From NCBI RefSeq assembly GCF_045037415.1, contig NZ_CP173438.1: a stretch of 64,000 bases of DNA, one strand, 5' to 3'. A model generated the notes under the pieces. The model made no database searches and was not told the DNA's origin. It worked only from the letters and a program-made list of their open reading frames with translations. The stretch comes from Escherichia coli (lineage in GTDB: Bacteria > Pseudomonadota > Gammaproteobacteria > Enterobacterales > Enterobacteriaceae). Below are positions 23,421 through 24,896 of the stretch, piece after piece. Position 1 is the first letter of the stretch; every line of letters starts with the position of its first letter. Position numbers and translations under genes: made by a program.

Positions 23421-23655
23421 TTCTTCATTAGGGAATTCAGGGAATTGAACATCAAAACAGGGATGTGCGCTTTTTTATTGAGCTTAGTGCTGCCTGCACA
23501 GGCCACCAGCTTTACCGAATATCTGCCAATGAGTGACAGCGAATACGCGCAAAAGCGGGCGCTGAAACCTCTCCTGACCATGCCTTATGATGCCGAGCAA
23601 ACCTGGCATTTTAGAAAAGTGGGCGTCTGACACGTTACTACAGAGAGAACAAAGA

Positions 23656-24075
23656 ATGACTGCTAATGCTGCACGCGCTGTTAAAGCAACAAGAGAACTG
23701 GTCAATGCAGTCCCCTTTCTGGGAGGCAGTGACTCAGAAGATGATTACCGTGAAGCACTGGAACTGGTCGAATATTTGATTGAAGAAGATGATACTAATC
23801 CACTTATCGACTTTCTGGCGAGCCGCATTGCAGAATATGAAAACAATAACGAAAAGTTTGCAGAGTTCGACAAAGCCGTTGCAGCAATGCCTGTTGGTGT
23901 GGCGTTACTTCGCACGCTGATTGATCAACATAATCTGACCTATGCAGATTTGAAGAACGAAATCGGCTCTAAATCCCTGGTCAGCCAGATTTTATCTGGA
24001 CAACGTTCCCTGACGATATCCCACATTAAGGCACTTTCAGCCCGATTTGGCGTTAAGCCGGAATGGTTTCTTTGA
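23656..24075 (+). CDS. HigA-like antitoxin / Xre-family HTH protein (C-terminal HTH), no cognate toxin gene found
   Basis: 139 aa from MTANAARAVKATRELVNAVPFLGG...; strongly resembles E. coli HigA (YgjM) pattern VAPFLAG..ALELV..L...DP.NPL.D......I..E....EF..F.......G.A..RTL.DQ..LT..DL..EIGSKS.VS..LSG.R.LT..H.K.L..RFG. (my recollection); longer in-frame ORF from 23587 possible. Confidence 0.75.
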   Translation: MTANAARAVKATRELVNAVPFLGGSDSEDDYREALELVEYLIEEDDTNPLIDFLASRIAEYENNNEKFAEFDKAVAAMPVGVALLRTLIDQHNLTYADLKNEIGSKSLVSQILSGQRSLTISHIKALSARFGVKPEWFL

Positions 24076-24095
24076 CTGATGGCAGACGCTAAATC

Positions 24096-24120
24096 GCCTG
24101 ATGCGCTACGCCTATCGGGC
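24096..24120. repeat. degenerate REP element
   Basis: gcctgatgcgctacgcctatcgggc, close to canonical REP gcctgatgcgctacgcttatcaggc. Confidence 0.5.
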
Positions 24121-24125
24121 TTTGA

Positions 24126-24160
24126 AAGGGCGCAGATTCTTAATTTTGCGCGCCCTTGTT
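24126..24160. terminator. hairpin between convergent HigA-like and DUF4259-like genes
   Basis: aagggcgc...gcgccctt 8-bp stem followed by tgtttg; shared 3' region of two convergent genes. Confidence 0.4.
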
Positions 24161-24166
24161 TGTCAT

Positions 24167-24604
24167 TCAGGCTGTTGTCTTTACTACTCTTAATTTATCA
24201 GTAAGCTCAATCAGATATGCTTTTGCTTTTTCGCGTGCTCGCCCCTCGAAAAGCATTATCCACTCATGTGTGTCGTCGATTGTTTGTAAACGGCCCTGGA
24301 GTTTTTTGCTGAAAGTCGACGTGAGCTGATAACCGTCGAGTTGATCAATTTGTTTACTCGATGTGATTTTTTTCCCGGCTGCTTTTTGAATGATAAGTTC
24401 AACGAAACCGATAACATTATTATCGTAATTATCGTAGAGAAATTCTTCATCTCCCTGAAATCCGAACAAATCTTCATGCTGGCTTAAGCGTTGAACAATT
24501 GACTCGGCATCAAAGGTCGAATCATCTTGCAGTTGTTCCTCTACCCAATTAATCAAATCCAGCCCTTCGTCGCTTTCGAGAGCCTCCATTCCCCATGAAC
24601 CCAT
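24167..24604 (-). CDS. DUF4259-like small acidic protein, function unknown
   Basis: 145-aa ORF starting MGSWGMEALESDEGLD (MGxWG N-terminal hallmark as I recall for DUF4259); SD aagga 7 nt upstream of ATG at 24604; AT-richer than flanking genes by eye. Confidence 0.7.
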   Translation of the reverse strand: MGSWGMEALESDEGLDLINWVEEQLQDDSTFDAESIVQRLSQHEDLFGFQGDEEFLYDNYDNNVIGFVELIIQKAAGKKITSSKQIDQLDGYQLTSTFSKKLQGRLQTIDDTHEWIMLFEGRAREKAKAYLIELTDKLRVVKTTA

Positions 24605-24652
24605 TTTGTATCCTTACCTGTTATTTCAGTCGAAATAGTATTATTCAATAAA

Positions 24653-24678
24653 GGTTCATCGCTAATCTGCGATGAACC
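24653..24678. promoter_or_regulatory. 10-bp-arm inverted repeat upstream of DUF4259-like gene (operator or 5' UTR hairpin)
   Basis: ggttcatcgc-taatct-gcgatgaacc, perfect arms, 50-75 bp upstream of the minus-strand start codon. Confidence 0.4.
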
Positions 24679-24896
24679 TCAAAATACAATCATATGGATA
24701 GCTGACAAAGTGGTCGTTGTTCACGCCGTATCCGGCACGGTTGCTTCCCTTAAATCCTCCCCGTTACTGGCAATTACTTTTTTATACCACCAGAACGACT
24801 TGTCGGAAAAAAGTACCCAGATGTGGACTGGCAACGATAAAATATTCATTAGAAAACGGATTCTCTCTGCCTTACTACGATAAATACTGTCATCAC

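Follow-up and report, generated by a model that had tools for sequence, protein, structure and literature searches.

The interval between hycI and hydN was analyzed in a 64-kb stretch of Escherichia coli chromosome from the hyc-hydN-hypF region (hereafter the window, that is, the whole 64 kb). In K-12 this site carries the beta-glucoside genes ascB, ascF and ascG. In the window the asc genes are missing and the spacing from the end of hycI (23420) to the start of hydN (25032) is 1.6 kb, with two intact open reading frames (ORFs), a HigA-family gene (23656-24075, plus strand) and a convergent DUF4259-like gene (24167-24604, minus strand). We conclude that this arrangement is very probably a lineage-specific haplotype of a hypervariable locus, built by several independent small events and not by a single cassette exchange. 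A preliminary description of the window had proposed one precise swap of asc for a segment of ~1.5 kb; the interval turned out to be a mosaic of at least four events.

All counts were taken among 5,426 complete E. coli genomes, and 80 loci around hycI were fetched from other species as an outgroup sample. The left ~700 bp of the interval (a remnant of a gene termed hyp251 here, and higA) is no alternative to asc, since higA was found at this locus in 2,508 genomes and ~1,780 of them have asc as well. For the right part the picture was different: the genomes with the asc scar and those with ascF add up to 5,424 of 5,426, so that asc and the haplotype of scar plus DUF4259 cassette are mutually exclusive, and asc has not been relocated in the genomes that lack it here. 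The idea that all of 23421-24896 substitutes for asc is therefore correct for 24124-24877 and incorrect for the left ~700 bp, which co-occurs with asc. This true alternative to asc itself comprises two separable changes, namely a cassette within a pair of repetitive extragenic palindromic (REP) sequences and a 4,098-bp deletion with filler. Furthermore, all four combinations of the left polymorphism (deletion junction or not) and the right one (asc or cassette) exist, which shows that recombination has shuffled both.

Anatomy of the hycI-hydN interval

The reference order hycI-ascB-ascF-ascG-hydN is indeed that of K-12, and the window lacks 4,098 bp of asc relative to it. The solo HigA-like gene, the convergent DUF4259-like gene, the REP and the hairpins (24126-24157, 24652-24679 and 24897-24924) could all be located in the interval, whereas the 3' remnant of ascB, half of REP2, a 76-bp filler, the hyp251 remnant and a 33-nt tail of higB had been overlooked. 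The features are listed below, with coordinates of comparison loci given by locus number (L004 is K-12).

22953..23420, plus: hycI, an ORF at the end of the hyc operon that anchors the variable locus on the left; annotated as hycI in strain 98194 (100% identical)
23445..23630, plus: truncated 5' remnant of hyp251; ORF annotated by RefSeq as a 61-aa hypothetical protein (strain 98194)
23626..23627: junction of a 1,033-bp deletion; window 23626 is L002 6206 and window 23627 is L002 7240
23627..23659, plus: higB remnant, last 33 nt; aligns to L002 7240-7272, the 3' end of the HigB coding sequence (CDS; 6961-7272)
23656..24075, plus: orphan higA, intact; 139-aa HigA-family antitoxin (RefSeq annotation, Pfam HTH_3, PDB 5IFG_B match)
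24096..24120: REP1, left member of the REP pair (bacterial interspersed mosaic element, BIME); K-12 counterpart between hycI and ascB, window 24076-24123 being 83% identical to L004 2739-2786
24124..24718, minus: DUF4259 cassette, 595 bp, 40.7% GC; boundaries by alignment to asc-positive haplotypes
24167..24604, minus: DUF4259-like gene, an ORF; 145 aa, pI 4.45, acidic, predicted all-alpha
24719..24744: second half of REP2, the right member; aligns to GTTCACGCCGCATCCGGCAC of REP2 in K-12, L003 and L007
24745..24801, minus: ascB 3' remnant, stop codon and last 18 codons; tblastn match of AscB residues 457-474 at 24801-24748, 94% identity, E=3.6e-6
24802..24877: filler, 76 bp, bridging the 4,098-bp asc deletion (L004 2903-7000); contains an internal ACGATAAA direct repeat
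24878..25031, plus: last 6 nt of ascG (CGATAA) and intact ascG-hydN intergenic region; 95.5% identity to L004 7001-7154
25032..25559, plus: hydN, right anchor; WP_001078777.1 in every haplotype examined

The asc genes were sought in the whole window by tblastn with K-12 AscB, AscF and AscG. The 18-residue AscB remnant was the only match, and none of ascB, ascF and ascG is present as a gene between hycI and hydN; no match to AscF or AscG was found in the 64 kb, where the last 6 nt of ascG remain. By blastn, window 24719-24801 is 85.5% identical to L004 2820-2902. Thus the deletion removed ascB codons 1-456, ascF and ascG except for 6 nt. E. albertii has the last 50 nt of this filler as well, with 3 mismatches in 50. 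In the DUF4259 haplotypes of the CFT073 type (L002, L009, L092 and L093), 43 filler nt between the ACGATAAA repeats (window 24834-24876) are missing, and the long form is kept by the window and E. albertii. The hydN control region had been described as intact, and the 95.5% identity of 24878-25031 to K-12 bears this out. Its 28-bp palindrome (24897-24924), upstream of hydN, is perfect in the window and has one mismatch in K-12, in CFT073-like strains and in E. whittamii; conservation of the palindrome extends to Salmonella, and it is possibly an FhlA site. An Rfam scan of 23300-25100 gave a single sub-threshold chance match and nothing else.

On the left side, an intact hyp251 homologue would start at 23463 and encode a hypothetical secreted protein of 251 aa, whose N-terminus (MCAFLLSLVLPAQA) resembles a signal peptide. 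Window 23300-23626 is 98.8% identical to L002 5880-6206, and in L002 hyp251 is intact as a 756-bp CDS (6043-6798); the strains with an intact gene include CU532-9, CFT073 and ATCC 25922, and K-12 lacks it. No significant Pfam family was found for the intact protein, and searches of NCBIfam and PADLOC returned none. The gene is a long-standing resident directly downstream of hycI in several Escherichia species, and relatives at 60-63% identity occur in Klebsiella spallanzanii and Phytobacter diazotrophicus (loci with the gene or a relative include L010, L011, L013, L014, L035 and L079). Lost in the 1,033-bp deletion were the remainder of hyp251, the promoter region of higBA and higB except for 33 nt; microhomology was looked for at the deletion ends and none was found. 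Its junction (hyp251'-higA) is present in 834 of the 5,426 genomes, including the asc-positive strains SF-166 and APEC E12053 (avian pathogenic E. coli, APEC, O2:K1:H4), and is 100% identical in the O25b:H4-ST131 strain 5506. Intact higB was found in haplotypes L002, L003, L009, L092 and CFT073. Both this deletion and that of asc look like illegitimate recombination, as judged from the lack of microhomology and, for asc, from the filler.

The REP/BIME assignment is based on homology to the REP pair of K-12, L003 and L007 and on imperfect palindromes in inverted orientation; a further REP copy lies at window 27985-28024 (97.5% match). The cassette takes the place of 36 bp within this pair (the REP1-REP2 spacer and the first half of REP2), and is a substitution rather than a clean insertion. 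It contains a terminator-like hairpin shared with higA (24126-24157), the CDS and a hairpin with an 11-bp stem (24652-24679). In each of the 725 genomes with the cassette (of 5,426) it is chromosomal, and no copy of the DUF4259 protein was found in plasmid and phage collections. In 23421-25031 we found no integrase or transposase ORF, no direct or inverted repeats flanking the cassette and no target-site duplication. The cassette appears to be a younger, foreign-looking addition, because of its GC content of 0.407, an allele diversity lower than that of neighbouring higA (synonymous divergence, dS, 0-0.035 versus 0.075-0.17) and a nearest non-E. coli relative in Listeria costaricensis. Insertion sequences (IS) were also observed nearby: in O104:H4, the REP pair that separates higA from ascB contains IS621 (L005 8530-9510), at the same spot as the cassette entry, and IS200C and ISEc13 lie between the DUF4259 gene and hydN in E2348/69 (L009 4624-6593).

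The AT-richness that had been judged by eye was borne out by computation: the GC content of 23421-24896 is 0.438, compared with a window mean of 0.527 (SD 0.031, same-sized windows), which is among the lowest ~1%. The sole other patch of similarly low GC in the window, at ~59500-60900, is the ordinary 5' end of proV and the proV-nrdF intergenic (proU regulatory) region. In the flanks, short patches of hycG (22200-22400) and hypF (25878-26078 and 27078-27478) differ by 8-12% from all five comparators, even from CU532-9, which is nearly identical elsewhere; their divergence suggests small recombination imports.

Haplotypes, outgroup states and proposed history of the interval

The occurrence of each element in complete E. 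coli genomes was as follows.

DUF4259 cassette: 725 genomes
asc scar junction: 725 genomes
ascF: 4,699 genomes
higA at the hycI-hydN locus: 2,508 genomes
higB (at least 80% of the query): 1,092 genomes
hyp251'-higA junction of the window: 834 genomes

These elements are combined in the following haplotypes.

hycI-REPs-ascBFG: K-12
hyp251-higBA-ascBFG: seen in E. coli
hyp251-(higB deleted)-higA-ascBFG: other breakpoints and its own filler; O104:H4, with IS621 added
hyp251'-higA-ascBFG: exact junction of the window; SF-166 and APEC O2:K1:H4
hyp251-higBA-DUF4259: CU532-9, ATCC 25922 and CFT073
higBA-DUF4259 with IS200C and ISEc13: E2348/69

The whole interval of 1,611 bp was found at 99% identity or more in ~550 genomes, with a 100% match in strain 98194. 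The window haplotype also occurs in ST131-like strains, and a close variant of it in CFT073 and ATCC 25922. As had been expected, the segment is not universal in E. coli: K-12 lacks all of the interval except the region upstream of hydN.

Outside E. coli, hycI-ascB-ascF-ascG-hydN is the usual order in Citrobacter, Klebsiella, Enterobacter, Kluyvera, Raoultella, Pseudocitrobacter, Kosakonia and others, and Salmonella arizonae and diarizonae, Buttiauxella, Cedecea and some Citrobacter have no asc at the site. The outgroup order, an AscB divergence similar to that of the flanking proteins and the ascB and ascG remnants together indicate that asc is ancestral and that its absence is a deletion. 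In E. whittamii (L010) and Escherichia sp. MOD1-EC7003 (L014), we found different, independent asc scars that keep ~40 nt of ascG, and thus asc loss is recurrent. E. albertii NBRC 107761 (L013 9346-9462) carries the scar of window 24719-24877, with REP2, the ascB remnant, 50 filler nt and the identical right breakpoint, in a locus without higBA and without the DUF4259 cassette (one genome examined). This suggests that the scar predates the cassette or was exchanged between species.

The anatomy, the breakpoints, the genome frequencies and the outgroup states were observed directly; the order of events, their mechanisms and the effects on phenotype are inferred from them. On that basis, the following history may be proposed. 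The starting point would be the enterobacterial order hycI-(hyp251)-REP pair-ascB-ascF-ascG-hydN, and the higBA toxin-antitoxin pair would have been inserted after hyp251 in E. coli. Illegitimate recombination would then have deleted 4,098 bp of ascB-ascF-ascG, leaving 18 ascB codons, the 76-bp filler and 6 nt of ascG. In such an asc-less allele, the 595-bp low-GC cassette with the DUF4259-like gene would have replaced 36 bp of the REP pair. The 1,033-bp deletion of most of hyp251 and higB would have orphaned higA, and recombination has since produced new combinations of the left part (hyp251/higBA) with the right part (asc versus DUF4259), with the hydN control region untouched.

A one-step replacement, in which a single foreign AT-rich segment of ~1.5 kb with higA and the DUF4259-like gene was exchanged for ascGFB, would account for the fact that the whole interval is AT-richer than its flanks and that asc and the cassette exclude each other in 5,426 genomes. 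However, higA and the hyp251 remnant stand together with asc in ~1,780 genomes, the ends of ascB and ascG and the REP pair are embedded in the segment, the E. albertii scar has no cassette and the cassette is far less diverse than higA. The interval also has no integrase, terminal repeats or target-site duplication, and no copy of the DUF4259 protein was found in plasmid and phage collections. Such a replacement is thus very improbable. It is also highly unlikely that E. coli ancestrally had no asc and that other strains gained it by insertion. Although E. albertii, E. whittamii, Escherichia sp. MOD1-EC7003 and Salmonella are without asc at the site, and a scar common to E. albertii and some E. 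coli should be old, 18 AscB codons are still present in frame in the window (94% identity), as is the stop region of ascG, and asc has the same position and orientation in more than 40 enterobacterial species, with AscB at ~86-91% and a divergence like that of flanking HycI and HydN. The different scars of E. whittamii and MOD1-EC7003, with their ~40 nt of ascG, likewise speak for repeated loss rather than gain. The probability that the absence of asc is an artefact of assembly or collapse is negligible, as the identical arrangement is contiguous in 720-725 independent complete genomes, including the 100% match over 1,611 bp.

How the scar arose is a different matter. Homologous recombination could have brought the asc-less allele into E. 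coli from a lineage resembling E. albertii, or in the opposite direction, as opposed to its being an old inherited polymorphism; such an import has some plausibility, although we consider it unlikely. The filler and right breakpoint are shared (3 mismatches in 50) though the species otherwise differ by ~10%, and the flanks are a patchwork of identities from 88 to 99.5%; on the other hand, the right flank of the window (24878-25100) is 96.4% identical to K-12 versus 88-90% to E. albertii, the ascB remnant resembles E. coli ascB more closely than its E. albertii counterpart, and the comparison involves one E. albertii genome.

It should be noted that several observations weigh against the stepwise history that we prefer. 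The order in which the asc deletion precedes the cassette depends on one E. albertii genome and on the lower diversity of the cassette. The ascB remnant of the window is 85.5-90.4% identical to E. coli ascB versus 81% to the E. albertii remnant, which fits poorly with one ancient deletion unless gene conversion took place afterwards. No source of the filler was found in the window, in the K-12 asc region or in the 93 fetched loci beyond E. albertii and the same E. coli haplotypes. In addition, the DUF4259-like gene differs from that of ATCC 25922 by 3 synonymous and 6 nonsynonymous changes, a sign of weak constraint, and truncated forms of it are numerous in databases; it follows from both that the gene may do nothing.

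Orphan higA and the DUF4259-like gene

The assignment of the 139-aa protein to the HigA family is supported by a Pfam HTH_3 domain (E=1.1e-8, residues 108-161) and by a full-length match to E. coli K-12 HigA (PDB 5IFG_B; E=2.5e-35, residues 9-138). No complete cognate higB stands directly upstream, where 33 nt of it are left, and higA is probably transcribed from upstream. The HigA protein is identical in the window and five other haplotypes (loci L003 and L005-L008), toxin-plus and toxin-less alike. At the nucleotide level, there were 15 synonymous and 0 nonsynonymous differences from the toxin-plus allele, and 7 and 0, respectively, from the other lineage with the same deletion. With 98 synonymous and 319 nonsynonymous sites in higA, the probability that seven neutral changes would all be synonymous is ~4e-5, and this skew suggests that either selection preserves orphan higA or functional alleles renew it through recombination. 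The signal of purifying selection would point only to maintenance of the HigA protein, and to nothing further about its function. Across the genomes, higA occurs without higB in ~1,416 (2,508 minus 1,092), through at least two independent deletions. Orphan antitoxins are abundant in E. coli, ST131 included (PMC10790755).

For the DUF4259-like protein, the match to Pfam DUF4259 (PF14078) was weak for the window allele (E=0.014, 16.7 bits, model positions 1-78 of 133) and better for its aligned relatives (E of 0.001 or less in four of nine and 0.1 or less in eight of nine, best 4.3e-9). The weak score can be attributed to a 9-bp in-frame tandem duplication (two copies of TACGATAAT; window 24425-24442, minus-strand codons 57-62), which yields YDNYDN in the conserved FLYDN motif and is specific to the 145-aa allele. 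Since the duplication lowers the Pfam score, it also explains why the 142-aa alleles are called 'DUF4259 domain-containing' in RefSeq and the 145-aa one 'hypothetical'. An AlphaFold2 model was all-helical, with a predicted local distance difference test (pLDDT) score of 85.5, and had no convincing structural neighbours; NCBIfam and PADLOC (defence families) gave nothing for this protein. No relative was found in a contig scan with one genome per species. A HMMER search of 1.84 billion representatives yielded 16 clusters at E of 1e-3 or less, mostly E. coli fragments. The nearest non-E. coli relative, from L. costaricensis, has 62% aa identity (66.7% DNA identity over 424 nt), and the next one, on a Staphylococcus-like contig, has 36%. 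Both are solitary genes with unrelated, metabolic neighbours and no toxin or defence partner. A literature search on 'DUF4259' returned nothing relevant. Taken together, the gene appears to have been captured recently, possibly with no function at all.

A broader scenario would join these observations, and we put it forward tentatively, considering it somewhat doubtful as a whole. An asc-deletion allele with its filler would be shared by E. albertii and one E. coli branch, as an old trans-species polymorphism or by import between species; a gene with its nearest relatives in Firmicutes would have been captured in the REP pair; and repeated, independent higB loss would have left an orphan HigA under strict purifying selection in ~1,400 genomes, implying a toxin-independent role (for example, as a regulator or anti-addiction factor).

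Significance and comparison with known systems

The asc-less haplotype as such is already known and is an ordinary lineage variant, annotated in hundreds of RefSeq genomes. The anatomy of the scar, the link to E. albertii, the repeated loss of higB beside a HigA that stayed conserved as an orphan, and the relationship of the cassette gene to Firmicutes appear to be new, being incremental findings that we did not find described in the literature searched. Judging from its genes, the strain would be without the AscF/AscB route for arbutin, salicin and cellobiose and without the AscG repressor, and the haplotype would explain the missing asc route and AscG in ST131-like and ST73-like strains. AscG is reported to repress prpBCDE as well (Ishida et al., 2009, as cited in PMC6550539). 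Given the conserved region upstream of hydN, no change in the regulation of hydN-hypF is to be expected. The haplotype is of modest practical value: the 76-bp filler and the junctions could serve as a compact marker for polymerase chain reaction (PCR) or k-mer typing, and the conserved orphan HigA is a reasonable candidate in which to look for toxin-independent antitoxin functions. The locus also provides a worked example of how apparent 'replacements' in bacteria are often stacked small independent indels that have been reshuffled by recombination.

The loss of the asc operon has been reported in ST131, where it was linked to poor cellobiose use (Alqasim et al., 2014, PMC3917908, citing earlier work, its ref. 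27). This is the same gene-content difference as in the window, and the passages of that paper drawn on here give no breakpoints, scar, higB loss or DUF4259 cassette. The paper presents asc as a difference between ST131 and CFT073; the RefSeq sequence of CFT073 (L093, NC_004431.1 3120145-3123735) has no asc and carries hyp251-higBA-DUF4259. Since CFT073 is also asc-less, the absence of asc is not specific to ST131, and the real difference between ST131 and CFT073 at this locus is the 1,033-bp hyp251/higB deletion.

Compared with the cryptic asc region of K-12 (Hall and Xu, 1992, as cited in PMC6550539), the window has the same flanking genes, the REP pair downstream of ascB and the ascG-hydN palindrome region; it differs in lacking 4,098 bp of asc and in having hyp251', higA and the DUF4259 cassette, which K-12 does not have. 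The uropathogenic E. coli (UPEC) arrangement of CFT073, ATCC 25922 and CU532-9 (hycI-hyp251-higB-higA-DUF4259-hydN) is closer, with the same scar, the same higA and a cassette at 96-98% identity, but these strains keep hyp251 and higB intact, lack 43 filler nt and have no 9-bp duplication in the DUF4259-like gene. Finally, the type II toxin-antitoxin system HigB-HigA (YgjN-YgjM) of K-12 (PDB 5IFG) resembles this locus in the full-length HigA alignment, in the C-terminal HTH_3 domain and in the toxin-first higB-higA order, with a 4-nt overlap, that is retained in related haplotypes of the locus. In contrast to that system, HigA of the window is a paralogue at another locus, and here the toxin gene and the operon's own promoter region have been deleted.

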